Below, piece after piece: positions 26,963 through 51,465 of a stretch of DNA of 64,000 nucleotides. The stretch lies in IMG/VR virus record IMGVR_UViG_3300045988_174937; one strand, 5' to 3'. The notes below the pieces were generated by a model. That model saw only the letters and a list, made by a program, of their open reading frames with translations. It made no database searches and had not been told where the DNA came from. How positions within the stretch are numbered: position 1 is the first letter of the stretch; the number at the start of each line of letters is the position of its first letter. The DNA comes from a virus. The position numbers were made by a program, and so were the translations under genes.

Positions 26963-27277
26963 ATGAACGCATGGAGATATTTCAAAATAGGTGACATCGT
27001 GACGGACCCCGAGGTGTGGGGCCGGACGACTTTTGTAATACGCTCGTTTCACGGCAACGACTACTGCCCATTAATCGCTGCAGAGTCCCTGAAACCAATC
27101 CGCGGTAAACGCATAAGGGTAAACCTCGGCGTACCTGAAACGCGACTTGTAAACGCCCCAAAACGTCCGTTGATGAAGATTGCGGATGATACGTTACGGA
27201 GGTTGGTCGGAAAAAGCACGGAAGCACGGCGTGAATTGTTAATTAGAACTTATCGTAAGCAAAATGGCGACATTTGA
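26963..27277 (+). CDS. Hypothetical protein
   Basis: 104-aa ORF. Confidence 0.6.
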   Translation: MNAWRYFKIGDIVTDPEVWGRTTFVIRSFHGNDYCPLIAAESLKPIRGKRIRVNLGVPETRLVNAPKRPLMKIADDTLRRLVGKSTEARRELLIRTYRKQNGDI

Positions 27278-28274
27278 CCATTACCCCTGGGCTGATAAAC
27301 TACCTGCTGCCACACTTGACGTCAGCGAGGAGCACTATCACGATTTCTTCCGGACTATGTTTGAGCGTCAGATGATATGGAAGCGGCGGTTCCTGGACCA
27401 GAAGCCGCGTCCGTGGACTGATGACCCCATATTACGCGACTACAAATTCACCAACGTATATCGCGAACTGGACCGTAATTCACAGTGGCAGATACGCAAC
27501 ATCCTCCTGGACGACGAACTGACGTTGACGAATATGGTATGGAAGATGATGGTGTTCCGGTATTTCAACAATCCCCCGACGTTTGAATACGCACGTGAAA
27601 AGTACGGCTGGGGTGCAGGTATTCCGGATTACAACCAGTACGACGAGAAGACTTTTGCTGAAATGGTAGCGTCGTATCGGTTGTCGGGGCATAACCCCTT
27701 CACTACGGCTTATCTTATCAACTCGATGGCTGCGCCCGGTAAGACACGCGATGAATGTTACACAGGAACGGTCGTTCCTACGTTACATCGCCGTTTGTAT
27801 GAGCTGATGCGCGTTGTATTAACGGCAAAAACCCCTGAGGACATTATTCAGTTCCTAAGAACACTTCCAGCGTCAGCGGCGTTTATCGCTCATGAGTTCT
27901 ATCAGGATTTCACCTATATACCGCGCTACACTTATCGTCGTTTTATGCGCTTTACCCAGGATGACTACACTAACGTGGGTCCAGGTGCATCAACAGGATT
28001 ACGTTTGATATTTCCATCACTAAAATGTCAAGTAGATGGTATATATCGCCTGCGCGACGAAGCCGCAAAAGCGTTGTCTGTTTATGGAGATTTCCCTTAT
28101 CTGCACTGGCACAAACTGGAGAACGGGTACTACACTACACCGAATGGCGAATTAACGCTTCACCAAGTAGAGATGTGGTTGTGTGAGTATCAAAAGTATT
28201 GGAAAGTCAAAATCGGCCAAGGAAAGCAGCGGAGCCTTTTCCAGCCGCATACAAAAAGTGATGCATTTCAATGA
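27264..28274 (+). CDS. Candidate aGPT-Pplase-like (amino-acid:DNA transferase family) DNA base hypermodification enzyme
   Basis: The N-terminal ERQMIWKRRFLDQKPRPWTDDPILRDYKFTNVYRELDRNSQW matches my recollection of the PWT.D.IL...F.NVYRE.DR signature of this all-alpha family. Not verified by search. GC is lower than the flanks. Confidence 0.4.
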   Translation: MATFDHYPWADKLPAATLDVSEEHYHDFFRTMFERQMIWKRRFLDQKPRPWTDDPILRDYKFTNVYRELDRNSQWQIRNILLDDELTLTNMVWKMMVFRYFNNPPTFEYAREKYGWGAGIPDYNQYDEKTFAEMVASYRLSGHNPFTTAYLINSMAAPGKTRDECYTGTVVPTLHRRLYELMRVVLTAKTPEDIIQFLRTLPASAAFIAHEFYQDFTYIPRYTYRRFMRFTQDDYTNVGPGASTGLRLIFPSLKCQVDGIYRLRDEAAKALSVYGDFPYLHWHKLENGYYTTPNGELTLHQVEMWLCEYQKYWKVKIGQGKQRSLFQPHTKSDAFQ

Positions 28275-28615: not shown

Positions 28616-30397
28616 TTGGATAATATCATGCTCGGCATAAAAGAAAGACTCGAAATGGTGGACCGCGCTCAGCAGACATTAGCAGTACGCAAGTCGTTAC
28701 TGCTGGAAAGTGCTATGCGCAGCGATAATCCGTCCGACATAATCAAAGCCGCCCAAATATTCAACCAGCAATCTAAGCCTGGAAATTCGGCTCCGCGGGC
28801 GTACTTGATTGACCCCCTGGAGTTCAACTCATTTTTGGGATATAAGGATAAGCCGTTTTCGCTTTCGTACGAAACGTTGCGCCGGATGAGCCGTACCCCC
28901 ATCATCAACTCGATTATCAAGACCCGTAAGAACCAGATAGCCGACTTCGCTGAACCGCAGGCCGACCGCTATTCGACGGGTTTTGTTATTCGGCGTAAAC
29001 CCAAGTTCGGCCAGGAGCAGAAGATGGACACGCAGGACCGCAAAATTGCGTCTTCCATCACCGACTTCATCCTCAACTGTGGTGATACCGCTACATGGGG
29101 CGGCGACGAGTTTGACGAGTTCATCCGTAAGATTGTGGACGACTCGCTGACGTTCGACCAGATGACGTTTGAGTGTATTCGTAACCGCCGCGGCAAACTG
29201 GTCCGCTTCCAGGCGGTTGATGCCGCTACGTTCCGTCTGGCGGAATCGTATTTCGACGGCGAGTACAACAACCCCTACTTTGAGGGAGCGATGATGGACG
29301 ACCGCCAGAACTGGGGACCCAAGGTCGATGGCTATTATCCGGCCTACGTCCAGGTGTACCAAACGGCCAAGGTAGCGCAGTTCTACCCCTGGGAGTTGTG
29401 CTTCGGCATCCGCAACCCAACCACGTCGATTTACGCCAATGGGTACGGAAACTCGGAGTTGGAAGAATTAATCAACGTCGTAACATCGATGCTTTGGGGC
29501 GACGAGTACAACCGCCGCTTCTTCTCGCAGGGTTCGGCCCCGAAAGGTCTTCTGCGTATCAAAGGTAACGTGAACGAGGCTTCGTTACAGCAGTTCAAGC
29601 AGCAGTGGCAAGCCATGATATCGGGCGTTATGCAGTCGTGGAAGACGCCCGTCGTTGAGGGTGATATCGACTGGGTTGACCTCCAGAAGAACAACCGCGA
29701 TATGGAGTACAACTCGTGGATGGAATACCTGATTAAAATCGCCTGTGCGGTGTTCTGTATCGACCCTACAGAAATCGGCTGGGATATTTCGCGTTCCAAC
29801 GGAAGCGGCCTAACGTTCGGCGACGGCCAAAAGCAGCGCATGGAGCAGTCGAAGGACAAGGGCCTTTACCCGATGCTGAAATTCATCCAGCGTAAGGTTA
29901 ACAAGTTCATCGTCGAGCAAATCAACCCCGACTTCGAATTCGTATTCATGGGCCTCAACGGAATGACCATTTCTGAGGAGCTGGATATGGACATCAAACG
30001 CCTCCAGGCTTTCCAGACCGTGGATGAAATTCGCGAGAAATGGGACCTCCCGGCTATCGGCGAAGAAAAGGGCGGCGATACTATCGAAAACTCCGTTATT
30101 CAGCAAGCCATCAGCGCCAAACAGCAACAACAGCAACAGGCCGCGATGGGCGGTATGGGCATGGGCGGAGGCAATCCGTTCGAAGAGGCCGCGGGTATGG
30201 GTATGGAGGGCGGAGGCCCCGCTGACCAGCCTGTGGCCGGAGGCGACGGCGAAGAAGACGCCGCCGCTCAGCCGGGAAACCCGTTCGACCTTTACGCCGA
30301 GGGTGACCAAGAAGAAACCATGAAGGCACGCGAGTCTAACCCCCTCGTGGCTGCATTCGACGAATACTTACAAAAAGCAATACACCATGACGAGTAA
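28616..30397 (+). CDS. Portal protein
   Basis: 593 aa. The core ...GYGNSELEELINVVTSMLWGDEYNRRFFSQGSAPKGLLRIKGNV..LQQFKQQW is portal-like. Q/G/M-rich acidic C-terminal tail. TTG at 28616 or ATG at 28628. Confidence 0.7.
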   Translation: MDNIMLGIKERLEMVDRAQQTLAVRKSLLLESAMRSDNPSDIIKAAQIFNQQSKPGNSAPRAYLIDPLEFNSFLGYKDKPFSLSYETLRRMSRTPIINSIIKTRKNQIADFAEPQADRYSTGFVIRRKPKFGQEQKMDTQDRKIASSITDFILNCGDTATWGGDEFDEFIRKIVDDSLTFDQMTFECIRNRRGKLVRFQAVDAATFRLAESYFDGEYNNPYFEGAMMDDRQNWGPKVDGYYPAYVQVYQTAKVAQFYPWELCFGIRNPTTSIYANGYGNSELEELINVVTSMLWGDEYNRRFFSQGSAPKGLLRIKGNVNEASLQQFKQQWQAMISGVMQSWKTPVVEGDIDWVDLQKNNRDMEYNSWMEYLIKIACAVFCIDPTEIGWDISRSNGSGLTFGDGQKQRMEQSKDKGLYPMLKFIQRKVNKFIVEQINPDFEFVFMGLNGMTISEELDMDIKRLQAFQTVDEIREKWDLPAIGEEKGGDTIENSVIQQAISAKQQQQQQAAMGGMGMGGGNPFEEAAGMGMEGGGPADQPVAGGDGEEDAAAQPGNPFDLYAEGDQEETMKARESNPLVAAFDEYLQKAIHHDE

Positions 30398-33983: not shown

Positions 33984-36059
33984 ATGAAAGAAATTATCAA
34001 CTACGGCGAAGCACGTCGTCAACAAATTCTGAAAGGTTTTACCAACATCGAAGAGTGTATCGAGGAAGCGCCGATTGAAAAAGCGCGTCACGGTGTTTAC
34101 GCCGATAACGCTCAGAACCGCCGTCTGCAGCGCGTGGGCCAGGAGTATGGTCACGCCGCTCAGGAAAAGCCTGAGGCAGGCCAGGAAGAGGGTGGTGTAC
34201 CGGAGGGCAACGTAAGTCTCCAGAACCACGCTCGTCAGGCTTCAGAAGAGGCCCTCGTAAAGGTGGCCAACGACCCGTCGGCCGACGCTGAGATGCGTAA
34301 GGTAGCCACGGCTGAGCTGGAGCGTCGTGGCGTAAACGTTCGCGCCAAGAACAAGAAAGGCGACCAGTCGCTCCGTAATGGTTTGGCTGACGGCGACGCC
34401 AAGTCGGCTTCGACGTTCGAAGCCATGGGCTTCCGTCAGATGGACGACGAGGACCTGGCTCAGTACGCCGGAGTTGAAGACGCCGCTCACGCTTTCATCA
34501 AGCAGGTTGGCGGTGACGAAGACGGCTTTGACCTGGTAGTTACCAAGACCAGCGAGGGTTACCGTGTGGACAAATACCCCTATGCTGACGTGGACAATTT
34601 TGAGTCCGTGACGGTCAAGAAAATCGAGGATGTCGAGGGAGCCGCTTCTAAATTTGGTGACCCCGATGCTAAGGGTGGAAAGGCTGATGCCAAGTCGCTG
34701 GTCGACAGTTTCTACTCTGCCATGGAGGATGAGGGAGATTTCGACGCTAAGTCGTTCAAATCCTATGTGAAGGAAAAGGGCGGCAAAGTCGTTAAAGAAC
34801 TGGCTGCGGCCATCGGTAACTTACCCAGCGAGACGATGTCGAGTGACCCCGATGATGAGGAAATCGCCGCTGAAATCGAATCGATGTTCAAAGAGGCGGG
34901 GATGCGCGTTCCTCGCGAAGTCAAGAAAGAACTTGATAAACTCCAAGGTTCCGCTGAGGGCGTTGTGGATAAATGGAACGCTTATCTCGAAGAAGAGGAC
35001 GGTGGCGAAGATTTTGCCGATTCTCTCCAGTCGCTGGTTGATAAAAAGAGCGACGCCAAGGTAATCAAGGAACTTGCCGAAGCGTTCCGCAATCTTCCGG
35101 CAGAGACGATGTCCAGCGACCCGGATGACGGTGAGATTGCCGACGAAATCGCCAACATGTTCGAAGAGGCTGGGGTTACACTTTCGAAGAAAGGTCAGGC
35201 CGCTCTTGACAAGATGCGCGATGATTCCGACTACGAAGAAAACGCCGACGACGCCGGGGAACTGGTACGCAGTTTCGACGATATGGCCGAAAACGATACC
35301 GATTTCGATTCCGCAGGATTCAAGTCGTTCGTCAAGAAGAAAGGCGACGCCGCCGCCATCAAAGCACTTGCCCGGTATATTCGGGAAAATCCCCTGGGTG
35401 GTAACATGGAAAGCGAACTCGATGACGACGAGATTGCTGAGGTTATCGAAAACATGTATGCCGAGGCTGGCGTAAAGGTATCTGAGGATGGTCACAAGGA
35501 ACTCGACGCTTTGCGCGGTGGCCAGAAAGAAAGCGATACCAAGCAAGCCGAAAAGGCTGAGCGGGCCAAGAAAGCCGCTGCAGCCGATAAGACTTCTAAG
35601 GCAAAAGGCGCCAAACTGGACGCTACTCTGAAAACCGTTGAGTCGGTGGACAAGATGGTGAAAGATGTCTTCAACGAAGACAACTCGAAGAAATTCCTCA
35701 AGAATTTTCTGAAAGACCCTGAAGCACATGCCAAGGTCCTGTCCCAGCGCATAAAGTCGGGCGACAAGAAGACTGCTGCTGACGCTCAGTATGTTGCTAA
35801 CCGTATTGCCGGCATTATCATGGACCCCGTGTCTCGCAGTCGCGGCGAGGGCGTTGGTCAGGAAATCGGCAATCATCCGGAGTTGAAGAAATTTATCGAT
35901 GCAAACGATGAGGCTAACAACATCAAGTGGAATCAGTTCGGCATGGACAAAGAGGAATCTCGGAGGTTGTTCGACGAGAAGAGGAAGAAGATGGATGCCG
36001 CACGCAAGGGATTTGTAAGCAAGTTCCTTGAGATTTACGGCGGTAACAAAGAGGAGTAA
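33984..36059 (+). CDS. Acidic repeat-containing virion/internal protein (scaffold or ejected protein candidate)
   Basis: 691 aa. N-terminal EKAR..G.YADNAQNRRLQRVG motif, a HEAT-like segment, three ~90-aa tandem repeats (nt 34689-35522) and a Lys-rich C-terminal part. Confidence 0.6.
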   Translation: MKEIINYGEARRQQILKGFTNIEECIEEAPIEKARHGVYADNAQNRRLQRVGQEYGHAAQEKPEAGQEEGGVPEGNVSLQNHARQASEEALVKVANDPSADAEMRKVATAELERRGVNVRAKNKKGDQSLRNGLADGDAKSASTFEAMGFRQMDDEDLAQYAGVEDAAHAFIKQVGGDEDGFDLVVTKTSEGYRVDKYPYADVDNFESVTVKKIEDVEGAASKFGDPDAKGGKADAKSLVDSFYSAMEDEGDFDAKSFKSYVKEKGGKVVKELAAAIGNLPSETMSSDPDDEEIAAEIESMFKEAGMRVPREVKKELDKLQGSAEGVVDKWNAYLEEEDGGEDFADSLQSLVDKKSDAKVIKELAEAFRNLPAETMSSDPDDGEIADEIANMFEEAGVTLSKKGQAALDKMRDDSDYEENADDAGELVRSFDDMAENDTDFDSAGFKSFVKKKGDAAAIKALARYIRENPLGGNMESELDDDEIAEVIENMYAEAGVKVSEDGHKELDALRGGQKESDTKQAEKAERAKKAAAADKTSKAKGAKLDATLKTVESVDKMVKDVFNEDNSKKFLKNFLKDPEAHAKVLSQRIKSGDKKTAADAQYVANRIAGIIMDPVSRSRGEGVGQEIGNHPELKKFIDANDEANNIKWNQFGMDKEESRRLFDEKRKKMDAARKGFVSKFLEIYGGNKEE

Positions 36060-36743: not shown

Positions 36744-37300
36744 TAGATGAAGTGACGAGGGTATTTCACGAAGCTAATCGATACCGCCACGACCACTTGC
36801 GTAAAGCCATAGGTGCTTTTGAGGGAAGCCTCACCGACGGCGATGCGCTGGAGAAGGCCCGTTCGAAGACAGGGCGGTACGCCAACACGGCCAAGAATCG
36901 GAAATTAGGGCGCGTCGGAATGCCGTATGAAAAGAAATCACGCTTCCCCGCGCCTCATCAGCGTCGAGATTCCGAGCACCGTCAAGAAGGTACGTATATT
37001 CGTACACTTACGGTGGGTGATGGCGCTGAAGCAGTCGAAATAGCCGACGATGGCGTTGCTCGTAACGATTTTTACGATAATCAAGAAGTCGGTAAATACG
37101 CCAAGCGTCATTATGAAAAAGTGAAAAACGGCGACAAGGTTCGTTATGACGGCAAGGTGAAAACCGTTTACGCAACCAAAGAATTGACTGAAAACGGCAT
37201 TACAACGCAGTACGTTCAATTTGTAGGCAGACCGTCGTATAGCGGTGCGCCACGTGGTACAGGTAAGTGGGTTCCGCGAAAAGACGTCGAGAAACTATGA
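36734..37300 (+). CDS. Hypothetical head-module protein with an EKAR..G.YANTAKNRKLGRVG motif
   Basis: 188-aa ORF. Motif at nt 36872-36931. Confidence 0.6.
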   Translation: MGVVDEVTRVFHEANRYRHDHLRKAIGAFEGSLTDGDALEKARSKTGRYANTAKNRKLGRVGMPYEKKSRFPAPHQRRDSEHRQEGTYIRTLTVGDGAEAVEIADDGVARNDFYDNQEVGKYAKRHYEKVKNGDKVRYDGKVKTVYATKELTENGITTQYVQFVGRPSYSGAPRGTGKWVPRKDVEKL

Positions 37301-38229
37301 TTTTCAACAACCGCCAAATAGACGACATGGTCGGTATTCTCCGGCGCTGGCAGTACCTGTTCGTTGCCAAGCACGTCGGACTGGACTTTCTGACCCAGTC
37401 GGAGATCGACATCTTGGTGGCGTCAGGGGTCAACGTCGATAAGTACAAGAACACGAAAGGCATCATCGAACACGCTTTTCTGTTCGGTATCTTGGCTGAG
37501 GCACTCGGCGATCAACGCGCCAAGAAGATGAATTACAAGCAATTTCTCCAGTTCCTGAAGTCGGGAAATTTCGTACCGCTCACCGAGCAGGAGGAAAACG
37601 CGCTCAACTACCTCAAGAACCGCGCCTATACCGACATCACGTCGCTCGGCAACCGTATCGTTACCGGAACACGGAACGCCATCCTCAAATCGAATTTCCG
37701 TCAGCAATCGGTAATACGTCAGCAAATCAAAGACAAGGCTATTCAAGCCGTTCAACTCCGTAAGGGAGCCCGGTATATAGCCAGCGAACTCGGAAACCTT
37801 ACCCAAGACTGGGGACGCGATTGGCTGCGTATTGCGTACTACCTCCTGCACGAAGCCTACAACGTGGGCCGCTCTGAAAGTATTTTCAAGCAACACGGGC
37901 CTGACGCCAAAGTGTATTTCGACGTCTATCCAGGCGCGTGCGCTAAGTGCCGGGAGTTGTACTTAGAAGACCCCGAGGACCCTACCTCGAAACCGAAACT
38001 GTTCCGTTTGGCGGACCTTATCGCTAACGGTAACAACATCGGTCGTAAGGCGGCAGAGTGGCTCCCTACGATTAACCCGACGCACCCCTACTGCCGTTGT
38101 ACGATTAATTACGTTCCTGACGGCTTTGATTGGGACCCCGCAACTCGCGCTTTCACCAAGCCCGTCAAACGCCAGTTTAAGGACCCAAAGTTAAAGAACT
38201 TGAAACTTAACATTAAAGTTACCAAATAA
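37297..38229 (+). CDS. Mu F / SPP1 gp7-like minor head (head morphogenesis) protein
   Basis: C-terminal INPTHPYCRCTINYVP signature. ATG at 37297 forms an ATGA overlap with the previous stop. Confidence 0.65.
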   Translation: MIFNNRQIDDMVGILRRWQYLFVAKHVGLDFLTQSEIDILVASGVNVDKYKNTKGIIEHAFLFGILAEALGDQRAKKMNYKQFLQFLKSGNFVPLTEQEENALNYLKNRAYTDITSLGNRIVTGTRNAILKSNFRQQSVIRQQIKDKAIQAVQLRKGARYIASELGNLTQDWGRDWLRIAYYLLHEAYNVGRSESIFKQHGPDAKVYFDVYPGACAKCRELYLEDPEDPTSKPKLFRLADLIANGNNIGRKAAEWLPTINPTHPYCRCTINYVPDGFDWDPATRAFTKPVKRQFKDPKLKNLKLNIKVTK

Positions 38230-39185
38230 TGAAAAACAAAATCGTACAAGACCCCCCGTTCACTATCCAGGTCGAGCCAACTGAGGGGTGTAACCTGGGA
38301 TGTTCGTTTTGCGGTTTGCGCGGTATGCGTGAAAAAGGTACCAAACCGTGGCTCTTTATGACGCTTGAAACTGCTGAGCGTATTGCGTCGGAAGTGGCTC
38401 GCGTGGGGTGGAAATGTAAAATCGTGTTTGCTATGCATGGCGAACCTACGTTAAACCCTAAGTTGGTTGATATTATCGGCGTGTTTCGTAAGTATTTGCC
38501 GAAAACCGTTTTTCACATGTACACTAACGGCTATGGCATCAACCGCACAGATGATACGGCGGCTTATCTCGACCGTCTGTTCGAAGCAGGAATCAACGAC
38601 ATTTTGGTCGATTGCTATACTGCCAAGGGGGACTGGAATTTTGTGGATAAAATCGACATTGAAAAGTACAACGTCACGGCCCTTGAACCTGGCGTTCCGT
38701 ACTATCTCCCCAAGCAGGGGCGTCGTATTTTGCTGTTGCCGCCACTTACCGAGGATGACATCAACAAAGGAACGCGTCGTCTGGCTAACCACTGCGGCGC
38801 GGCGTTCCCGCTCGACGACTCATTCAACAACAAACGCTGTACTTTCCCGTTCCGCGAACTGGATGTACGTTGGAACGGCCAGGTGTGCCTGTGCTGTGAC
38901 GACTTCCGCGGCGAGTATCCTATCGCCAATATCCACGATATGCCTATCGAAGACCTCTGGAATCATCCGCGCTTCCACGCTGCCCGCGTGATGCTGTACA
39001 ACAACGACCGTCGGTTCCGTCCGTGCCAGGGTTGTACACACGTCAGCGTCCGCGTCGGTTTCCTGCCTGATAAGATGGGCAAGAAAACGCTCCCGCCTAT
39101 CACGCCGGAAATTCGCCGTATGGCTGAGGACGTATCGAAGGACGGCCCCTGCGCCGAGATTTACAAACGGCCATGGGAAAAATAA
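38229..39185 (+). CDS. Radical SAM enzyme with a SPASM/twitch-type C-terminal Cys-rich domain
   Basis: EPTEGCNLGCSFCG (CxxxCxxC), GEPTLNP, then CTFPFRELDVRWNGQVCLCCDDF...IEDLWNHPRF...CQGC auxiliary-cluster motif. Confidence 0.75.
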   Translation: MKNKIVQDPPFTIQVEPTEGCNLGCSFCGLRGMREKGTKPWLFMTLETAERIASEVARVGWKCKIVFAMHGEPTLNPKLVDIIGVFRKYLPKTVFHMYTNGYGINRTDDTAAYLDRLFEAGINDILVDCYTAKGDWNFVDKIDIEKYNVTALEPGVPYYLPKQGRRILLLPPLTEDDINKGTRRLANHCGAAFPLDDSFNNKRCTFPFRELDVRWNGQVCLCCDDFRGEYPIANIHDMPIEDLWNHPRFHAARVMLYNNDRRFRPCQGCTHVSVRVGFLPDKMGKKTLPPITPEIRRMAEDVSKDGPCAEIYKRPWEK

Positions 39186-39853
39186 AGTACCTCTGTGTCG
39201 AGCCGCACGCAGGTGACCTCCTGATGAGCGCTTGTCACGTTTTAGTAGCACCCGAATATGACGTTCGGGTGCTTACTGTAGATAGCGACCCAAAACGCGT
39301 CGAGGAACAGCGCCAACTGTGTGATTTTCTTGGTATAGCTATGGACTATCTGGACCTGGAGTTAGAAGATGTCCGTTGTAGCAATTTTCAGAGCCAATGT
39401 AGGGATTTAAGCTATGAAGCGGTCTATACGTATCTTCGGAATAAATACGACTCTGACGGGCTTAATTTCGCTGAACAAACGCTTCGCGATTATTTGCGTA
39501 AGTTTATGCGCCGCAACCCCGGTTACACGTTACTGGCGCCTCTCGGTGCAGGACACCCGTTCAACCAGTTTATCCACGATACGGTATATGACACGGCGTC
39601 CAGCGCGGAATATTATCGCGACTTCCCTTATTCGTATGCATCGCGAGGCCGTGAACAAGTACGCGTGCAATGTTATAACAGCGAAAACCTACTGATGAAA
39701 CGCCGGGTATCGTGCGACGATATGTTTGACGTTAAGTGGGAGTTGGTTATACGGTTTTATCCTTCGTTGGAAGCCACTATGGATAAATACCAGCGTTTTA
39801 TAGAGCAGAACCCGCCCGAGGAAATATGGTACGAGGGTGAATTACCGTTTTGA
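39173..39853 (+). CDS. PIG-L/LmbE-family deacetylase-like protein
   Basis: LCVEPHAGDLLMS (H-x-x-D as in HPDD) and a later GAGHPFNQFIHD His motif. Confidence 0.45.
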   Translation: MGKIKYLCVEPHAGDLLMSACHVLVAPEYDVRVLTVDSDPKRVEEQRQLCDFLGIAMDYLDLELEDVRCSNFQSQCRDLSYEAVYTYLRNKYDSDGLNFAEQTLRDYLRKFMRRNPGYTLLAPLGAGHPFNQFIHDTVYDTASSAEYYRDFPYSYASRGREQVRVQCYNSENLLMKRRVSCDDMFDVKWELVIRFYPSLEATMDKYQRFIEQNPPEEIWYEGELPF

Positions 39854-39909
39854 CGTTGTGTTCACGTTTTCACAAGTATATCAAACGTGTAAACCTAAAA
39901 TTGCAAAAT

Positions 39910-41337
39910 ATGAAAGTTCTTATTGGTGAATTTGTAATGAGCCCTTACGGAGGCATCGCTGCCTATGTAACGGAGATAATTAAAGGGTTCAAATCTCTGG
40001 GGTGTGATGTCGACTTGTTTCGGCTTTCCCCCAGTAAGATAACCCAAAAGGCGTATGACGCTAAATGTGCTGAGTTGAAATCTGGCGATTATAAGTATAA
40101 GTCGTCGTCGGGTTTTGAATACGACGCAAATGTTGGCTATTGGTGCAACAGCATAGAGGGCTACATGCTTCCGCCCTCTAACCGAATTCCGGTCTACGAA
40201 GAGGGGGCGCTCGAACAGTGGCATAAATTGGCGGACACGGCGGATATCGTTCTATGGAATTTCCTTCCTACGCATAACCGCGCCTGGGAGGGTAAAAACG
40301 GACAGCCGTTCGATTATTGGTACAAATTCTTCGACTTGCCGTCCAGTGTATCACAGGTGTATATCGTGCATGATATTTCGCCTGACAAACGCAATACATA
40401 TCTTTCTGTGCTAAAGGACAAGATTCTGTTCTTGGCCGTTGCTCACCTTGTGGGATACAAATGCTGTGAGAATATCGGCATACCGCGCTCTTTGCTTCTC
40501 AATCCACGCTTTCTTGACGAGAAGAAGAGCCCGGCTACGCCGATGAAGTCGCGCGAGGTGGATTTCTTTGCAGGGCACATTTTCAAGCCAGTTAAGCACT
40601 TGGAAGAGTACATTCGCGCTATTCCGTACATTAACGCCAAGAAGCAGCACACATGTTGGTTGGCGGGTGCAGGAATCGAACAGAACTACATGACGGCTCC
40701 GGTGAAAATTAAGCCGCGATACATATGCTCTAAAACCTATGATCCCGACTTGGACCCGGCCCTTGAGGGTAAGGTTACTATTTGGAACCGGGCCTTGGAA
40801 TGCGGCATGGAGTACTTTGGGCTGTTGAGTGTTAGCCAGGTAAGCGACGTGCTGGATAACGCTAAGTTTGCCATTGACCCGCAATACAGCCCGTATGGTT
40901 CGCTTCATGGCCGTACTCACATAAATGGGTTCATCATCGAAGCACTTGTCCATGGTACATATCCCGTAATACGAGATTATCGTGGCATTACGCCGGAAAG
41001 TCTTACAGTTGAAGACCCGATTTTCGACGTAATGGAAAAGATAGCCATTCCCTGGGATGCGACCCCAAAACAGTTTGCTCAGATGTTAAAAGACGCTTTG
41101 CGTATGGACCCTGAAAAGTACCTCGCTGATACGGACCATAATTACAAAGTGGCTTTGGAATTGTTTAACGCTCGCGCCAATGCTGAAGAAATAATTCGTA
41201 TTTGTAAGGGCGGGAAGAAATATGTCAACAAACACCTGGAATGTGGCGAAGATTCTCCAGAGGTGCAAAAGAGTACCAATAAGATGATGGAAGAATTTTT
41301 CCACATACCACTGCCTCTCAAATGGGAGAACAAGTAA
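39910..41337 (+). CDS. GT-B fold glycosyltransferase (GT4-like)
   Basis: N-terminal MKVLIGEFVMSPYGGIAAYVTEIIKGFKSLGCDVDLF and C-terminal HINGFIIEALVHGTYPVI (E..G...EA...G.PV-like). ATG at 39910 is preferred over 39850. Confidence 0.55.
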   Translation: MKVLIGEFVMSPYGGIAAYVTEIIKGFKSLGCDVDLFRLSPSKITQKAYDAKCAELKSGDYKYKSSSGFEYDANVGYWCNSIEGYMLPPSNRIPVYEEGALEQWHKLADTADIVLWNFLPTHNRAWEGKNGQPFDYWYKFFDLPSSVSQVYIVHDISPDKRNTYLSVLKDKILFLAVAHLVGYKCCENIGIPRSLLLNPRFLDEKKSPATPMKSREVDFFAGHIFKPVKHLEEYIRAIPYINAKKQHTCWLAGAGIEQNYMTAPVKIKPRYICSKTYDPDLDPALEGKVTIWNRALECGMEYFGLLSVSQVSDVLDNAKFAIDPQYSPYGSLHGRTHINGFIIEALVHGTYPVIRDYRGITPESLTVEDPIFDVMEKIAIPWDATPKQFAQMLKDALRMDPEKYLADTDHNYKVALELFNARANAEEIIRICKGGKKYVNKHLECGEDSPEVQKSTNKMMEEFFHIPLPLKWENK

Positions 41338-41339
41338 CA

Positions 41340-41372
41340 ACAGGGGATGCTTTCGAGGCATCCCCTGTTTGT
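41340..41372 (+). terminator. Rho-independent terminator
   Basis: ACAGGGGATGC (41340-41350) pairs with GCATCCCCTGT (41358-41368) as a perfect 11-bp stem, followed by TTTG. Confidence 0.8.
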
Positions 41373-41404
41373 ATGCCAAATATAAGTTTACAAATGCTTA
41401 TTTT

Positions 41405-43159
41405 ATGGTAGAACAATTTGAAAAAGCGAAGCACAACGTCGGCGACCACCACCCTACCCAGCCGTGGGTGTGGACGGAATACAAGCCTGGCAAATTCGAT
41501 TGGCGTCACGAGAAAAAGAACGCTAAACCCAAGCCCAGCGCCGATACTGGCAAAGAGTCGGGTAATTCGGGTCCTGTGACGAGTCTTGAAGCGTGGGCCA
41601 AGAAGACCAGCGACGATAACCTTTTGAAGGTTGTTAACAACCCTAAAGGCAGCGCCCAGTTGCGGCATATTGCCTACAACGAGTTGAAATCTCGTAACGC
41701 CGATATGTCGCAGGTGGACACCAGCGGAACGCTGTCCACGTTGCTGAAGATGACTACTCAACAGGACCCTGTTGCGCCTACCACCACCGGAGCCAAGGTG
41801 GACATCAACGACGGCGAGGGCGGTAACGACGATGGCGAAATCGTCGAAGACTGGTTCCTCAACCCTGAGGACCCGCGCATTCAGAAAAAGTTCAACAAAC
41901 TCCAGAGCCGTCAAGACCGTATCGCTTACGACCGCTTCGTCTATGCGATGAAGAAAAAGGACCCCGATTACGAACCGCCCGTTGAGGTCATGTACGACCT
42001 GAACCGCCAGTATCTGGAGTTCCTCGATAACAAGGAGCAGCGGTTCATGATATCGGCTGGCGGTGCAGGTATCGGTAAATCTTACGGTTTCAAGAAGATT
42101 GCCGAACTGCTCAACAAGCGTCCGTTCGACGCTGAAACCGACTCTCCGGGTGACGGCGACTATGACTACGTTGAACTCGGCGATATCAACTCCAAGAAGC
42201 AACTGCTGGGCGTACTGAAAGCCCACAACGGTAAGATTCTTCTGTTCGACGATACCGATTCCGTTATCACCCGCACCGACCTGGCTTCTATCATGAAGAA
42301 AGCCACCGCCGCTTCAGGTAAGCGCGTGGTCGGCGACCCGGAGGACGTCAAGTCGAATTTCGTATTCACGGGCCGTATCATTATCATGACCAACAAGGAC
42401 CTCGTGAATCTTTCGAAGAACGAGGACACTAAGGCCATCATTTCGCGTGCTACGCTGACGTCGGAGGTATATCTTACCGTCGATGAAACTATCGAGGTTC
42501 TGAAGGACCGCTACGAGGAAATGGACATCCCCCAGCAGCCGCACCTCGAAGACCCCGAAGAGGACAAGAAGGAGCGCAAGGAGCTGTACGACCTTATCGT
42601 CAAGAATAAGAACAAAATCGACCCCGCTAAGTTTACCACCCGTACCTTTGGAACCATCCTGTCGGAGAAGCGTTCTACCGACCGTTCTAACAGGATGGCC
42701 AAGATAGGCGGTGAGTGGACCAACCTCATCGGCGATAAGCAAAAGGAGTGGGAGCGGGCCGCAGTACGTGCACTGACGAAAGGATTCGTGTACGAGGCCA
42801 TCCAGCCCGTCGAAACCTCCGACGAGATAGCCAAGGCTGAAGCGCTGCTCGACTCCGCAGAATCGCTCGAAAAGGCCGATTTTACCGAAAAGCAGCGTGA
42901 GCGTCTTGCCGACAAAAAGGAGGCTCTCCCTGACGGTTCGTTCCCGATTCGTAACAAGTCCGACCTGAAGAACGCCATCCGTCTGGCCGGCAACGCCAAG
43001 AATCCTGAACGCGCCCGGCGTTGGATTAAACGCCGCGCCAAATCGCTCGGTGCCGAGGATATGATTCCCGATACGTGGAAAGCCCGTGCCACGGACCTCG
43101 GTGCATTACCCGCCGACGATATGTCGATTGAAAAAGCAGAAACCCTTTTGTTCGGATAG
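41405..43159 (+). CDS. AAA+/P-loop ATPase domain protein in the virion module
   Basis: Walker A SAGGAGIGKSYG, Walker B KILLFDDTD, sensor-like IIIMTN. N-terminal HEAT-like LLKVVNNPKGSAQLRHIAYNELKSR. ATG at 41405 is preferred over TTG at 41369. Confidence 0.6.
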   Translation: MVEQFEKAKHNVGDHHPTQPWVWTEYKPGKFDWRHEKKNAKPKPSADTGKESGNSGPVTSLEAWAKKTSDDNLLKVVNNPKGSAQLRHIAYNELKSRNADMSQVDTSGTLSTLLKMTTQQDPVAPTTTGAKVDINDGEGGNDDGEIVEDWFLNPEDPRIQKKFNKLQSRQDRIAYDRFVYAMKKKDPDYEPPVEVMYDLNRQYLEFLDNKEQRFMISAGGAGIGKSYGFKKIAELLNKRPFDAETDSPGDGDYDYVELGDINSKKQLLGVLKAHNGKILLFDDTDSVITRTDLASIMKKATAASGKRVVGDPEDVKSNFVFTGRIIIMTNKDLVNLSKNEDTKAIISRATLTSEVYLTVDETIEVLKDRYEEMDIPQQPHLEDPEEDKKERKELYDLIVKNKNKIDPAKFTTRTFGTILSEKRSTDRSNRMAKIGGEWTNLIGDKQKEWERAAVRALTKGFVYEAIQPVETSDEIAKAEALLDSAESLEKADFTEKQRERLADKKEALPDGSFPIRNKSDLKNAIRLAGNAKNPERARRWIKRRAKSLGAEDMIPDTWKARATDLGALPADDMSIEKAETLLFG

Positions 43160-43162
43160 TTT

Positions 43163-45544
43163 ATGGACGAACTGAGAAAAGCGCTGGAAACTTTCGCCCT
43201 CCGTAATGCCGAGGGCGATGTTTCTGACGCCGTATTGGAGAAAGCCTGTGAAGCGTACAAGGCCCGTTCCGAGTTCGTCGATGACTACGAGTACAGCCTG
43301 TATGTAACCAAGTCGTTGTACGACCATCTCCACGGCGTTGAACAGGACCCGGATATCGTAAAGGCTATCATGCCTGGTCAGACTAAGGTAGTCAATGGCG
43401 TGGTGTACATTTGGACGCTTACACCAAACGCCAAAACTACCTACGACTGGCGTGTGTACAAGAATCCTCAAGGCATACCTGTTGGAAAAGGGGCTTTTCG
43501 TTCCAAAGTCATGTTGGCTCAACAGGAAAAGGAGGTGAATGAAATGTTCCCCGCCGACCCCTCGCAGCTGACCTTTGTACAGAAATTAGGCGGTTCCACG
43601 GGAGCCGTCCTGATGAAGGATGCCAAGGGCCGCGAATTTGTCGTCAAGAGTTCAAAGAACACCAATCGCGGTCACGTTGCGGCAGAGTACTACGCCGCGC
43701 AGGTGTACAGTCTCTTGGGGTTGGACACGCCGGACTATGAGTTGTATGACGACGGCACCGACCTGACGCTTATCTCGAATTACATGCGTGGTATGTCCGA
43801 ACCCCAGGTTAAGGACTATGACGCCATGGCTAAAGGTTTTGTTGTTGACGCCTTTCTGGCCAACTGGGATGTCTATCAGAACGACAACTGCCTGGTAGAT
43901 GCGGCAGGAAAGGTTTACCGCGTCGATAATGGCAGTGCGTTCAATTACCGGGCACAAGGAGCCAAAAAACCGTTCAACGACCAAATCGACTGGGACGGCA
44001 TGGTACGCTACAATCCCAGTATCATAGCCAACCTCAAGCCACAGGATTTTATTGACCAGATTGACGCGCTTAAAGCCCGTAAAGAAGAAATTCTGGCATT
44101 TTTCGACGCTGGAAGATTGGCGTCGAAGCCTAAGATGCGTGCCATAATCGAGGCCCGATTCAAGGACCTGGACCGCATCCGCGGGTACTACGAGGTTGAG
44201 TTGCGCCGCACCACGCGCCAAGTTAAACCTCGGACGCTGAAATCTCAAGCGGATATGTACCGCGAATTTACAGAGGACGAGGTGAACGATTTTTGGCAGA
44301 ATCAGGACGGTGGCGCCTACTATCGAAAATTACAAAGACACGGCGGAGATACCGGGTGGGAGTTGCTTTCCACCATTTGTGCCGCTCGTGGTTTTGATGC
44401 TCGCCCCGATGTCGTTGACGACGCTGCGTTCTGGGCCAAGGCGGCTTCGGCTAAGTATCATATGTTCCGCGGCGTTGCCCCGCGTGGAAGCGACAAAAAC
44501 TACTTTGCCGACGACTTCAAATACAACGACGCCTGCTATTATGGAACTGTTGGTATCTACGGCGAGGGAATTTATTTTCACGTCAACGACTCCAGCAACG
44601 CCGACCGCACTCCTTCGGGATACAAAAAGACTTCGGCATACCATAACGTACTCGGATACGCTGGCGCTGGCGCCGTTATTGAGGCGTGTCTCGAGGACGA
44701 CGCCAAGGTCATAACCGTCGCGGACGCCATGGAGGAGGTCAGGCAGTTGGCTGCTGGTAACTCAGCAGCACTGAAAGCCGCACAGGCCGAACTCGACAAC
44801 GCTAAGGCCGAATATGACCGTGTCAGCGACGAACTCGAAAACCTTACCGATAACACCAAGAAGCAGGTTAAGTCCAGTATGCACTGGGACGATGCTTCGT
44901 ATATCGACATTCCGTTGCAGATTGACCAAATAATCGACTGGGGTGCTATCGACGATGACGGCAACCCGGCGTACATGAAATTCGACGACTTCATGGACAA
45001 CCACCTCCGTGGCTGGGTCACCGCTAACGGCGGCACTATCACGGAAAAGGGTAACGGTACGGGCGATTACGTTATCAAGATGCCGAATACGGCGGAACGG
45101 TTCGTGTTCTCGCGCTATCGGTACGAGAACGACGCCATCAAGCGCAAGAACGGTTTCGCCCGCCCTTACAACTACCCCGTTCGCCAGTTCAAGGAATGGA
45201 TTATGCGCGAGCACTACGGTAAAATCGAGGACGCTGTGGAAGAAGCCGTTAACAACCTCGGCGACGAAATCAAGCGTCTTCAGGGAGAGCAGCGTAAAGC
45301 GTACACCGTTTATCAGGATAAGCGCGATGCGGTGAGCAAAATCAACGTAACCTCTGTTGGCGACCCTGATAAGGATATCTATGCCGCTATTTACAAAAGC
45401 GTTCATGAGGGCCACGATAAGGAACCGTTGGGAGTTTATGCCGCTTTGAAAGGATACGACGCTCTCATCCAACCCAACGGTAACTACTGTGGTAACTCCT
45501 TCATGATTGTGCTGAACCGCTCGAAAATCATTACTCGAAAATAG
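43163..45544 (+). CDS. Polyvalent protein: atypical protein-kinase-like domain + ADP-ribosyltransferase-like domain
   Basis: Kinase-like KLGGSTGAVLMKDAKGREFVVK ... DAFLANWDVYQNDNCLVD ... YRVDNGSAF (nt ~43565-44062). ART/PARP-like MFRGV ... GIYGEGIYFHV ... SAY ... GAVIEACL (nt ~44345-44722). Confidence 0.55.
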   Translation: MDELRKALETFALRNAEGDVSDAVLEKACEAYKARSEFVDDYEYSLYVTKSLYDHLHGVEQDPDIVKAIMPGQTKVVNGVVYIWTLTPNAKTTYDWRVYKNPQGIPVGKGAFRSKVMLAQQEKEVNEMFPADPSQLTFVQKLGGSTGAVLMKDAKGREFVVKSSKNTNRGHVAAEYYAAQVYSLLGLDTPDYELYDDGTDLTLISNYMRGMSEPQVKDYDAMAKGFVVDAFLANWDVYQNDNCLVDAAGKVYRVDNGSAFNYRAQGAKKPFNDQIDWDGMVRYNPSIIANLKPQDFIDQIDALKARKEEILAFFDAGRLASKPKMRAIIEARFKDLDRIRGYYEVELRRTTRQVKPRTLKSQADMYREFTEDEVNDFWQNQDGGAYYRKLQRHGGDTGWELLSTICAARGFDARPDVVDDAAFWAKAASAKYHMFRGVAPRGSDKNYFADDFKYNDACYYGTVGIYGEGIYFHVNDSSNADRTPSGYKKTSAYHNVLGYAGAGAVIEACLEDDAKVITVADAMEEVRQLAAGNSAALKAAQAELDNAKAEYDRVSDELENLTDNTKKQVKSSMHWDDASYIDIPLQIDQIIDWGAIDDDGNPAYMKFDDFMDNHLRGWVTANGGTITEKGNGTGDYVIKMPNTAERFVFSRYRYENDAIKRKNGFARPYNYPVRQFKEWIMREHYGKIEDAVEEAVNNLGDEIKRLQGEQRKAYTVYQDKRDAVSKINVTSVGDPDKDIYAAIYKSVHEGHDKEPLGVYAALKGYDALIQPNGNYCGNSFMIVLNRSKIITRK

Positions 45545-49977: not shown

Positions 49978-51465
49978 ATGGACAGACTTTCTATCAATCT
50001 CGCCGACTATGGCATCCAAGCGCGTGGTGCTCAGTACGGCTCGTCCAGCCAGGAAGAGGTCGCTATGCTGAACAAAGCCCTCGAAGCAACCGACATCACG
50101 GGTCGTCAGACGACGAACCTTACCGATGCCTCGGGTGCTCCGCTGAAGGTGGAGTCGCTGGAGCGTACTCTGAAACACCTGACGTTCCGCGAGAGCGACA
50201 TCGTTCTCTGGAAGAACCTGCCGAAAAAGGCCGCCTACAACACCGTTGAGGAGTACAACCAGCTGGCATCGTATGGTGCTGACCGCGGTGGCTTCACCAA
50301 CGAGGGCGAACTCCCCGACGAGGAGGACTCGATCTACATCCGCCGGGCTCAGCTGGTGAAATACCTCGGCGTCACCAAGTCGGTTACGCACCAGATGACC
50401 CTCGTCAACACGATGGTGGGCAACATCATGGAGCGCACCATCAAGGACGGTACGCTGTGGATTCTCCGCAAGCTGAACAAGTCGCTGTATTTCGGCAACT
50501 CGGACATCATCCCGCAGGAGTTCAACGGTCTTCTGGCTCAGCAGTTGCAGTCGGACGCATGGAGTGGCCTCGACGCCTACCTCAACTCCGAAAACGTTAT
50601 CGACCTGCGCGGTCGTGGCCTGACCGAGGACCCCATCGAGACCGCCGCCAACTCGATTGTCGAGAACTACGGCCTCGGCACGGAGCTGTACGCTCCCCCT
50701 GCCGTGCTGTCGGACTTCGTCAAAACGTTCTACGGCAACAAGTTCATCCAGCCCAACACCGCCCAGACCAGCGCCGGTATCATGGGTCAGCGCGTTCAGG
50801 CGTTCGACTCGCAGTTCGGCCGCATCGGCCTCAACTACGACGTCTTCTTCAAGAAGGCACCGTTCAAGATGGCTGGCGCTCAGTCCACGCATCCCAAGTC
50901 GCCCGCCGCTCCCGTATGGGACCCTGCTGCTGCGGCTACGGTTGTGGCTGACACGACGACCTCGAAATTCAACTCGGAGGATGCCGGCAACTACGTTTAC
51001 GCCATCGCGGCTATCAACCGCCACGGCGAGTCGTCGCTGGTAGTCAACGAGACCCCGGTTGCCGTAACGGCAGGCTCGGCCGTCGACCTCAAGTTCTCGA
51101 TTACCGACAACGCTCACCCGGCTACGGGCTATCGCATTTACCGCACGAAGAAAGGCGGTACCAAGGACAGCAAGTTCTACCCGATTTTCGACATCTCGGT
51201 GGCTGAGCTGAAACTTGGCTATGCAGGCGCTGCCGGCGACCTGTGCCGTGACAACAACTATTTCCTGCCCGACTGCGACCAGGCGTTCCTGGTACAGTTC
51301 GACAACGAGGTCATCGAGTTCGCTCAGCTGGCCCCGCTGATGAAGATGGACCTGGCGATTCTGTCGCCCGCGTACCGCTTCATGGTGCTGCTGTACGGTA
51401 CGCCGTTCCTGTACGCTCCGAAGAAGATGGTTCGCCTCATCAACATCGGCCGCGCTTCCAACTAA
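49978..51465 (+). CDS. Major capsid protein
   Basis: 495 aa, positioned after the protease/scaffold and followed by a very strong terminator. Contains an Ig/FN3-like segment. Confidence 0.6.
   Translation: MDRLSINLADYGIQARGAQYGSSSQEEVAMLNKALEATDITGRQTTNLTDASGAPLKVESLERTLKHLTFRESDIVLWKNLPKKAAYNTVEEYNQLASYGADRGGFTNEGELPDEEDSIYIRRAQLVKYLGVTKSVTHQMTLVNTMVGNIMERTIKDGTLWILRKLNKSLYFGNSDIIPQEFNGLLAQQLQSDAWSGLDAYLNSENVIDLRGRGLTEDPIETAANSIVENYGLGTELYAPPAVLSDFVKTFYGNKFIQPNTAQTSAGIMGQRVQAFDSQFGRIGLNYDVFFKKAPFKMAGAQSTHPKSPAAPVWDPAAAATVVADTTTSKFNSEDAGNYVYAIAAINRHGESSLVVNETPVAVTAGSAVDLKFSITDNAHPATGYRIYRTKKGGTKDSKFYPIFDISVAELKLGYAGAAGDLCRDNNYFLPDCDQAFLVQFDNEVIEFAQLAPLMKMDLAILSPAYRFMVLLYGTPFLYAPKKMVRLINIGRASN

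Follow-up and report, generated by a model that had tools for sequence, protein, structure and literature searches.

A conserved enzymatic cassette among the head genes of a gut Bacteroidales phage and its possible role in sugar hypermodification of hydroxymethyluracil DNA

Introduction

A stretch of 64,000 nucleotides from IMG/VR virus record IMGVR_UViG_3300045988_174937 (the window, by which the whole stretch is meant) carries, within its head-gene region, a cassette of three genes that encode a radical SAM protein, an LmbE-like protein and a glycosyltransferase (GT). An earlier note, made from the sequence alone, had offered three acceptors for the sugar that such a trio might install, namely virion proteins, the phage's own DNA or a component of the host envelope. 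The question raised by the locus is which of these, if any, the cassette serves. The reading favoured here is that the cassette acts after replication as a DNA hypermodification module and places a sugar on the 5-hydroxymethyluracil (hmU) of the phage's own DNA; we would give this reading an even chance.

The cassette (38229–41337) consists of three open reading frames (ORFs) in one orientation, referred to below as p1 (the radical SAM ORF), p2 (the LmbE-like ORF) and p3 (the GT-B ORF). It is located between the genes for the portal (28616–30397) and the major capsid protein (MCP; 49978–51465), directly 3′ of a weakly MuF-like gene. The ORFs and the features that bound them are as follows.

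37267–38229, + strand: MuF-like minor head protein, 320 aa; conserved 5′ anchor of the slot, translationally coupled to the radical SAM gene
38229–39185, + strand: p1, radical SAM enzyme with a BtrN-like twitch/partial-SPASM auxiliary-cluster domain, 318 aa
39173–39853, + strand: p2, LmbE/PIG-L-fold protein with degenerate catalytic motifs, 226 aa
39910–41337, + strand: p3, GT-B fold, GT4-like glycosyltransferase, 475 aa
41339–41369, no strand assigned: GC-rich hairpin with a 12-bp perfect stem and a 7-nt loop, at the 3′ end of the GT-B gene
41369–43159, + strand: P-loop/AAA ATPase-like protein, 596 aa; conserved 3′ anchor of the slot, a context gene

Family assignment of the cassette proteins

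The radical SAM/SPASM call for 38229–39185, made previously from the motif CNLGCSFC and from a Cys-rich, SPASM/twitch-like C-terminal motif, is upheld, since both Pfam models score above their gathering cut-offs: Radical_SAM (PF04055) at 3.5e-14 and 53.8 bits (cut-off 29.5), and SPASM (PF13186) at 2.8e-12 and 47.2 bits (cut-off 21.5). The NCBIfam model for twitch-domain radical SAM proteins also matched (6.7e-10), and none of the NCBIfam equivalogs reached its cut-off. The closest solved structure in a PDB sequence search was BtrN (4m7s; 3.7e-12, 49 bits), aligned in two regions, the core (12–127) and the auxiliary domain (199–276). C21-x3-C25-x2-C28 (CNLGCSFC) is invariant in 24 of 24 distinct p1 family sequences, as are C189, C204, C222, C223, C266 and C269. 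C204, C222, C266 and C269 line up with the four cysteines of the BtrN auxiliary-cluster domain, and C189 and C223 are additional invariant cysteines. A full SPASM domain has the seven-cysteine motif CX9-15GX4C...CX2CX5CX3C...C and two clusters, and the twitch domain of BtrN has four ligands and one cluster. Because the CX2CX5CX3C part is truncated to CX2C in p1, its auxiliary domain is considered twitch-like and not a full SPASM domain. The ratio of non-synonymous to synonymous substitution rates (dN/dS) for p1, 0.03, indicates strong constraint. Assignment of p1 as an orthologue of BtrN (2-deoxy-scyllo-inosamine dehydrogenase) was rejected on the grounds of the two-region alignment, the lack of an equivalog match and the absence of a 2-deoxystreptamine pathway context; by analogy, p1 may work like BtrN, although it is not a member of that family.

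A ferritin/rubrerythrin-like protein (Ferritin, 7.7e-10) is encoded at 23221–23817, directly after a dUTPase/DCD-like gene (22694–23218). Such ferritin-like enzymes were treated as oxidative-stress helpers by Benler et al. (PMC8008677), and the protein could support an oxygen-sensitive Fe–S radical SAM enzyme.

For p2 and p3 of the window, searches of Pfam, PHROGs and NCBIfam, phmmer searches of the PDB and profile-versus-PDB searches gave no match, and p2 did not match PIG-L (PF02585) at E ≤ 1. As these direct family searches were empty, the identities of the two proteins rest on structure prediction and on Pfam scans of individual family members. Profile iteration gathered 218 p2 relatives, some of which had been labelled 'LmbE' automatically in an NCBI TPA record and by JGI, and PF02585 matched, weakly, 40 of 50 family members (best 2.2e-4). 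An AlphaFold (AF2) model of p2, made from the alignment of its relatives, had a pLDDT of 91.1. The top Foldseek match of that model in the PDB was the LmbE-family teicoplanin deacetylase 2xad (E = 5.9e-8, TMq 0.59), which was the sole LmbE-family match; the remainder were generic Rossmann folds.

In LmbE enzymes such as MshB and BshB, the His and the second Asp of the motif H-P/A-D-D are metal ligands and the first Asp is the general base, while the second His of the motif H-x-D/x-H binds metal. PHSDD and GHPFH are present in 44 of 50 aligned p2 relatives. The window clade has PHAGD and GHPFN, in which Gly replaces the general-base Asp and Asn replaces the third metal-ligand His, and in sister loci with a TAGT (see below) p2 is further changed at the remaining His positions (PQAGD, SQAGD, NPFN, QPFN). 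The p2 of the window is, to judge from these motifs, probably a pseudo-deacetylase. The earlier call of an LmbE-type deacetylase, based on an HxxD...H pattern, therefore stands as regards the fold and does not as regards the active site or a match to PF02585. The dN/dS of p2 (0.16) is higher than that of its neighbours (0.03–0.08) and far below 1; p2 is kept under purifying selection and is not decaying.

For p3, 330 relatives were found at approximately 50% identity, and the p2 and p3 relatives lie mostly on metagenomic contigs of 90–130 kb. The AF2 model of p3 (pLDDT 88.9, pTM 0.89) gave 347 Foldseek matches in the PDB at E ≤ 1e-3. The best E value was for PimA (4e-11), and T4 alpha-glucosyltransferase (AGT) in complex with HMU-DNA (1y6f, 1y8z, 1y6g) followed at 1e-10 to 5e-9, with top TMq values of 0.54–0.57 that equal or exceed those of the GT4 enzymes; MshA and BshA came next, likewise at about 1e-10, and the protein O-GlcNAc transferases SdgB and GtfA were also among the matches. 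No sequence similarity between p3 and T4 AGT was detectable. Outside its own family, the nearest viral models to p3 in BFVD were a 'DNA alpha-glucosyltransferase' and two GTs of Bacillus phage SP-15, a phage whose DNA contains a glycosylated hypermodified thymine. PimA and BshA are structural neighbours shared by phage DNA GTs of validated activity (PMC13326640).

GT4-like motifs occur at both ends of p3 (YGGI..LG.EV and GF.IEAM..G.YPV). In its EX7E motif the second Glu (E344, '...GFIIEAM..G.YPV') is invariant and the first position is Thr or His, and the window protein retains every family-invariant residue. Pfam matches to p3 relatives were weak (PF13439 on relative P0092; PF00534, 0.0086, on L001, where L designates a retrieved locus). 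The proposed GT-B/GT4-like identity is thus supported by fold and by terminal motifs, although the window protein itself is unmatched by the Pfam models Glycos_transf_1 and Glyco_transf_4. Taken together, the three family assignments of the earlier note are borne out at the fold or superfamily level.

Comparison of the slot in related phages

It was of interest to compare the genes that lie between the MuF-like gene and the ATPase gene (the slot) in relatives. Loci were retrieved in two ways, with the MuF-like gene as an anchor, which is independent of the presence of the cassette, and with the p2 family as an anchor. The 95 complete slots were classified as shown below, the counts being of loci from one lineage, some of which are a single contig stored in two collections.

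Radical SAM, LmbE-like, TAGT: 39 loci; p2 motifs degenerate; radical SAM in 39/39
LmbE-like and GT-B: 48 loci; canonical PHSDD with GHPFH/GHPMH (second motif unmatched in 2); radical SAM in 13/48
Radical SAM, LmbE-like, GT-B (window type): 7 loci; p2 motifs degenerate; radical SAM in 7/7
Empty (L034): 1 locus; no p2; no radical SAM

It is apparent that an LmbE-like gene and a glycosyltransferase gene fill the slot in 94 of the 95 complete loci, relatives of 34% G+C content included. Since the same slot is filled in nearly all relatives, the cassette was not recently inserted. The previous description of it as wedged into the head module is correct in that it lies between the portal and MCP genes, but not in the sense of a recent arrival, and its interpretation as a recent low-GC island was rejected on this distribution and on a G+C dip that reaches only the 6th percentile.

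In 39 of the 95 complete slots, and in 45 loci when partial slots are counted, the place of the GT-B gene is taken, at precisely that position, by a TAGT gene, assigned by a full-length profile match to PF20691 (E = 3.7e-13). TAGTs are a family of DNA-base glycosyltransferases, and in T6 the TAGT gene occupies the syntenic position of the gene for the GT-B beta-glucosyltransferase in T4 (PMC13390438). The canonical LmbE motif set was always found with GT-B (48/48 complete loci), and all 39 complete TAGT loci are degenerate in this respect. Two N6/N4 DNA methyltransferases were also found within the cassette (L001/L041, 2.4e-18; L040, 5.3e-48). They are 24% identical and occupy different positions in different sublineages and, to judge from these sequences, are independent insertions.

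In some relatives further genes separate the LmbE-like gene from the GT-B gene, and in some cases one also precedes the LmbE-like gene. Their products have NUMOD3-like repeats and are, by motif only, homing endonucleases; their candidacy as additional pathway enzymes between p2 and p3 was rejected for this reason.

L038:11626–12360; L152:5234–6004; L153:5300–6004; approximately 10 further loci: GIY-YIG-type homing endonucleases (motif only)

These comparisons also bear on whether the cassette is a decaying remnant, being lost in the window clade together with a pathway that no longer works. The loss of catalytic residues from p2, which has gone further in the TAGT sisters, its raised dN/dS and the lower G+C content at third codon positions (GC3) of p2 and p3 would be expected of a remnant. 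Such decay is hardly compatible with purifying selection on p2 (0.16) and on the radical SAM gene (0.03), with ORFs that are intact in every locus and a p3 that has kept all of its family-invariant residues, or with a GT slot that has been refilled with a TAGT gene rather than deleted, and there seems only the slightest chance that it is the explanation.

Phage lineage and the host-envelope alternative

A near-identical 97.6-kb contig (loci L031, L060, L088, L104 and L128) was used to close the genome. The closed genome encodes a DnaG-type primase, a split DnaE polymerase, SF1 and SF2 helicases, RecA, SbcCD and a ferritin-like protein and, in the interval between portal and MCP, a glycosyltransferase, a P-loop ATPase and a large kinase-like protein. 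DnaE is split into ORFs of 564 and 682 aa (L104:5985–11011, in the near-identical genome, upstream of the window start). The proposed 'Gratiaviridae' (Benler et al. 2021; PMC8008677), for which Bacteroides and Parabacteroides are the predicted hosts, are described as having DnaG, DnaE, SF1/SF2 helicases, SbcCD, RecA and ferritin-like enzymes, with a GT, an ATPase of the AAA family and a HipA-like kinase between portal and MCP. On this match of gene content, the window phage is a 'Gratiaviridae'-type gut Bacteroidales phage. The products of 41369–43159 and 43163–45544 are the counterparts of what those authors called the 'AAA ATPase' and the 'HipA-family kinase'; the HipA-like label rests on their paper (PMC8008677), and a Pfam scan of the kinase-like protein of the window did not reproduce it. 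Among isolates, the nearest terminase large subunits (TerL) are those of Bacteroides phages DAC and SJC (37% identity), and in 50,697 records of isolated phages neither megablast with the cassette nor tblastn with p3 and TAGT gave a match.

Several further observations concern the lineage. A small ORF at L128:4439–4750 has a weak BACON-domain match (8.9e-4), which fits association with a Bacteroidota host. Locus L153 (DZBD01000005.1), a 39-kb contig of 34% G+C content in a Sulfuricurvum sp. metagenome-assembled genome, contains genes for MuF, LmbE, a homing endonuclease, GT-B, the ATPase and the kinase; its presence in a bin of sulfidic-cave Campylobacterota reflects an error of binning or else indicates that the lineage is not confined to gut Bacteroidales. 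IMGVR_UViG_3300029572_000001 (199 kb; L020, L044, L059, L070, L084, L117, L123, L145 and L151) carries the whole phage region twice, in copies that are not identical, and is probably an assembly that joins two related genomes.

Benler et al. (2021; PMC8008677) proposed that the trio of GT, ATPase and kinase modifies the host capsule, and the cassette could likewise act late in infection to remodel capsule, lipopolysaccharide or some other glycan on the surface of the infected Bacteroidales cell and so block superinfection. The GT4 and LmbE families normally belong to cell-envelope, thiol or glycolipid pathways, p3 relatives have been named 'glycosyltransferase involved in cell wall biosynthesis' automatically (JGI), and the cassette, whose expression would be late, adjoins the AAA ATPase and HipA-like kinase genes (PMC8008677). 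The genes for the 596-aa P-loop protein and the 793-aa kinase-like protein, however, follow the slot in every relative, including the cassette-less L034, and therefore form no obligate unit with the cassette. A surface-glycan pathway would hardly explain the replacement by TAGT or the insertion of DNA methylases. In addition, no flippase, polyprenyl-phosphate transferase or membrane protein was found within the slot in the classified loci, and no family match marks p1, p2 or p3 as membrane or secreted proteins. An envelope target is accordingly judged unlikely.

Genes of an hmU pathway

Outside the cassette, the closed genome contains several genes that would be expected of a phage with hmU in its DNA. 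A ThyA homolog of 405 aa, in which the residue at the position of uracil/cytosine specificity is Asn, is encoded directly upstream of DNA polymerase (L104). The hydroxymethylase MilA is its best PDB match, and its closest phage relatives are those of SP8 (1e-45) and SP10 (gp188; 1.6e-46) and an M6-like 'deoxyuridylate hydroxymethyltransferase'. The homolog is accordingly predicted to be of the dUMP-hydroxymethylase type. A YfbR-like HD 5′-deoxynucleotidase is encoded immediately downstream of the polymerase (L088:955–1764). Two further genes of this kind lie in the window.

22694–23218, + strand: dUTPase/dCTP-deaminase-like protein (Pfam dUTPase 1.6e-9, DCD 4.3e-5); pyrimidine pool manipulation
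27264–28274, + strand: clade-1 aGPT-Pplase homolog of the M6 gp55/SP10 gp186C type; adjoins the portal gene; marker of thymidine-hypermodifying phages

The aGPT-Pplase homolog matches Pfam HMUDK_hel (3.5e-50), SP10 gp186C (1.5e-27) and MP1412_14 (9.5e-21), and 453 phage records match it, mostly ViI-, M6- and SP10-like. No 5-hydroxymethyldeoxyuridine (5-hmdU) DNA kinase was found in the closed genome with phmmer probes (SP10 gp186N and MP1412_13), Walker-A scans or Pfam, and no clade-2 amino-acid:DNA transferase (AADT) was found there by phmmer or Pfam. The 596-aa P-loop protein has no similarity to the known DNA kinases that act on 5-hmdU (5-HMUDKs). A genome with a clade-1 aGPT-Pplase and without a detectable kinase or clade-2 AADT is possibly a useful case for the role of clade 1.

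The position of the aGPT-Pplase gene bears on a second alternative, in which the GT acts on capsid or other head proteins during assembly, a modification with reported parallels in some mycobacteriophages, and the LmbE-like and radical SAM proteins tailor either glycan or protein. The location of the cassette between portal and MCP, with translational coupling to the MuF-like head gene, the occurrence of SdgB and GtfA among the structural matches of p3 and the frequent modification of peptides by radical SAM/SPASM enzymes are all in keeping with a virion protein as acceptor. Nevertheless, a DNA-modification marker, the aGPT-Pplase, is also found in this 'structural' region, next to the portal gene, and a late-region position is for that reason not diagnostic in this lineage. 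The closest solved radical SAM structure is the sugar/cyclitol dehydrogenase BtrN and not a peptide maturase, and the TAGT swap and methylase insertions argue against a protein acceptor. Glycosylation of virion proteins is therefore considered improbable.

The closed genome speaks also to the idea that the trio serves auxiliary metabolism by making a small molecule, such as an aminoglycoside-, mycothiol- or bacillithiol-like glucosamine conjugate, by the logic of BtrM, BtrD and BtrN. The structural matches are what this idea would predict, with BtrN the best solved match of the radical SAM protein, MshA and BshA among the best for p3, and an LmbE-family antibiotic deacetylase the best match of p2. 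Yet no 2-deoxy-scyllo-inosose (DOI) synthase, aminotransferase or other pathway gene is present in the closed genome, the radical SAM gene is missing from 35 of the 48 canonical loci, the deacetylase of the window is degenerate and replacement by TAGT does not fit, all of which make a small-molecule product very unlikely.

DNA as the proposed target

Of the three acceptors offered by the earlier note, the phage's own DNA appears from these data to be the best supported, and virion proteins and the envelope less so. DNA is favoured because of the TAGT replacement, the insertions of DNA methylases, the hmU-pathway genes and the structural neighbours of p3. The proposed pathway would comprise four steps.

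In the first, a dUMP hydroxymethylase of the ThyA type, so identified by homology, would produce 5-hydroxymethyl-dUMP, leading to hmU in DNA, with the dUTPase/DCD-like and HD 5′-deoxynucleotidase enzymes as helpers. In the second, p3 would transfer the sugar of a nucleotide sugar to the hydroxymethyl group that hmU bears in duplex DNA, in the manner of T4 alpha-glucosyltransferase on 5-hydroxymethylcytosine (hmC); the fold is taken from the model, and the acceptor and donor are putative. In the third, in most of the family, an active LmbE metallo-deacetylase would strip the N-acetyl group to give a cationic amino sugar, a step proposed because of the universal pairing of GT4 with LmbE. In the window clade p2 would probably no longer deacetylate and might perhaps act as a partner of the radical SAM enzyme. 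In the fourth, the BtrN-like radical SAM enzyme would tailor the attached sugar, most likely by conversion of a secondary alcohol to a ketone, or by epimerisation, as the analogy with BtrN suggests. The product would shield the packaged genome from host nucleases.

The logic suggested at the outset, in which a GT4 enzyme transfers GlcNAc and an LmbE enzyme deacetylates it, agrees with the wider family (canonical motifs, 48/48 loci of the LmbE-like and GT-B type) but not with the window clade (PHAGD/GHPFN). Because its p2 has lost the general base and a metal-ligand His, deacetylation and an amino-sugar product are doubtful for the window phage. The full proposal, that gut Bacteroidales phages replace thymine with hmU bearing a hexosamine-type sugar, which is deacetylated by LmbE in most and oxidised or epimerised by the radical SAM enzyme in many, is tentative and, in such detail, somewhat doubtful.

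Several points weigh against DNA as the target. The evidence throughout is computational. The ThyA homolog could be an ordinary thymidylate synthase instead, and the canonical route of thymidine hypermodification is incomplete, because neither a 5-hmdU DNA kinase nor a clade-2 AADT is detectable. The co-occurrence counts for the slot do not represent independent events, since they come from one phage lineage and include duplicate contigs. The cassette is located in a late structural operon and is translationally coupled to the MuF-like head gene, as might also be expected if the acceptor were in the virion or the envelope. To our knowledge, the GT4 and LmbE pairs described to date have small molecules, lipids or glycopeptides as substrates, and not DNA. 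Finally, the p3 of the window is not basic (isoelectric point, pI, 6.4; family median 8.6), and p2 is acidic (4.9). Protein charge was found to be uninformative as a proxy for DNA binding, given the difference between the pI of p3 and the median of its family.

Boundaries, base composition and neighbouring genes

The three genes had been described as translationally coupled. The radical SAM start overlaps the MuF-like stop (TAATG) and the radical SAM and p2 genes overlap by 13 nt, in agreement with that description, but 56 nt separate p2 from the p3 start codon (ATG, 39910). A terminator with an 11-bp stem, the strongest in the window, had also been placed at the end of the cassette. The hairpin is real (41339–41369, with its perfect stem of 12 bp), but it is followed by no T-tract on the + strand, and a terminator scan flags it on the − strand only. 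It is limited to the GT-B version of the slot in the clade of the window (the window, L008, L010 and L031); TAGT loci have another, AT-rich hairpin instead.

The G+C content of the cassette is 48.7%, in comparison with 51.5% for the window, and corresponds to the 6th percentile of 3.1-kb windows. The sample line at 39901–39960, counted by hand as about 38%, was recomputed as 38.3%. A lower G+C content is confined to p2 and p3 (47–48%, with lower GC3), and the radical SAM gene, at 52.5%, does not share it, so that the cassette as a whole shows a small, marginal dip.

The MuF-like gene (37267–38229) matches phrog_595 (2.6e-5), and its L001 orthologue matches Phage_Mu_F (0.0049). In L022–L028 and L041–L043 the MuF-like ORFs are 566–711 aa in length, in comparison with 320 aa in the window, owing to a long C-terminal extension, perhaps a polymorphic domain with a cargo or effector role like that seen in MuF–toxin fusions. 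The P-loop protein (41369–43159) has a Walker A motif, GGAGIGKS, at residue 231 and matches phrog_1250 (1.5e-11). The gene 3′ of it (43163–45544) encodes a 793-aa protein with a kinase-like DxxxxN...DNG motif; Pfam recognises neither of these two proteins of the window. A strongly acidic protein of 691 aa with approximately three internal repeats of about 100 aa (SFKSYVKEKGGKVVKELAAAIGNLPSETMSSDPDDEEIAAEIE) is encoded at 33984–36059 and is probably a scaffold-like or internal head protein.

Significance

If DNA is the target, the cassette would define a new class of hypermodification, with amino-sugar or keto-sugar adducts on hmU, and would include the first LmbE deacetylase and the first BtrN-type (twitch) radical SAM enzyme to act on DNA, that is, aminoglycoside-style sugar tailoring on a DNA polymer. 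A swappable GT module (GT-B or TAGT) would then diversify the glycan in an arms race with host nucleases. The DNA of abundant human-gut phages might be under-represented or mis-sequenced in viromes, and the published idea of host-capsule modification by the 'Gratiaviridae' GT would have to be reinterpreted. The exchange of GT-B for TAGT, the active and degenerate LmbE proteins and the lineages with and without the radical SAM gene offer natural experiments for enzymology. New DNA glycosyltransferases and on-DNA sugar-tailoring enzymes would be possible tools for DNA labelling and epigenetic sequencing.

Comparison with known systems

It had been stated that no phage system with this trio inside a capsid module was described. 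This holds only in part, since a GT between portal and MCP had been noted (PMC8008677), though not the radical SAM and LmbE-like genes. In the searchable literature there was no description of GT-B/TAGT, LmbE-type and BtrN-like radical SAM genes as one conserved modular unit, of a link between such a cassette and an hmU genome, of a series of active and degenerate LmbE proteins or of lineages with and without the radical SAM gene. Already known are the glycosylation of hydroxymethyl pyrimidines, thymidine hypermodification, the GT of this phage family and the automatic LmbE labels. The GT/ATPase/kinase block of the 'Gratiaviridae' is the same locus in the same lineage as that of the window, and the paper that describes it (PMC8008677) makes no mention of a radical SAM protein, an LmbE-like gene, a ThyA homolog or thymidylate synthase, an aGPT-Pplase, a TAGT or hypermodification.

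Campylobacter phages have a 'BtrN protein' that shares 23% identity with p1, and the literature reports an LmbE-like gene for them. They were rejected as an analogue, as the neighbour of the BtrN-like gene proved unrelated to p2 (hhalign probability 0.1%). Campylobacter phage vB_CjeM_WX1 (L046, 109957–122903) has four radical SAM genes, one of them annotated BtrN, with an amidinotransferase and an aminotransferase, in a region unrelated to the cassette.

The same pairing of folds as in the cassette is found in the GT4 and LmbE pairs MshA/MshB, BshA/BshB, PIG-A/PIG-L, BtrM/BtrD and the teicoplanin GT/Orf2*. The likeness extends to the strict co-inheritance of canonical LmbE with GT-B in the phage family and to BtrN as the closest solved radical SAM structure. 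In contrast to these systems, DNA is here the probable acceptor, the p2 of the window is without the general base and one metal ligand, the radical SAM gene is optional in the family and the phage has no other aminoglycoside or thiol pathway genes.

The hypermodification of thymidine in SP10, PhiW-14, ViI, M6 and PaMx11 (PMC5889632, PMC8989533) shares with the window phage a ThyA gene beside the polymerase gene and a clade-1 aGPT-Pplase. M6 gp53 provides an earlier example of a radical SAM protein that works on a substituent linked to DNA (Lee et al. 2018 and 2021; PMC5889632, PMC8989533), although the M6-type enzyme is SPL-like and that of the window BtrN-like (twitch), and an M6-type probe was unmatched in the closed genome. 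The present phage differs also in its lack of a 5-HMUDK kinase and a clade-2 AADT, and the substituent would be a sugar and not an amino acid.

The glucosylation of hmC in T-even phages, by the alpha- and beta-glucosyltransferases of T4 and the TAGT of T6, has in common with the proposed pathway a ThyA-family hydroxymethylase and a post-replicative GT-B enzyme. The window p3 differs from the T-even enzymes in its GT4-like motifs, in the attached LmbE-like and radical SAM proteins, which T-even phages do not have, and in its place in a late structural operon; the base here is probably hmU and not hmC, because of the Asn at the specificity position of the ThyA homolog. The likeness is nonetheless close in two respects, namely that T4 AGT bound to DNA is among the top structural matches of p3 and that one syntenic position can hold either GT-B or TAGT, as with the beta-glucosyltransferase of T4 and the TAGT of T6.

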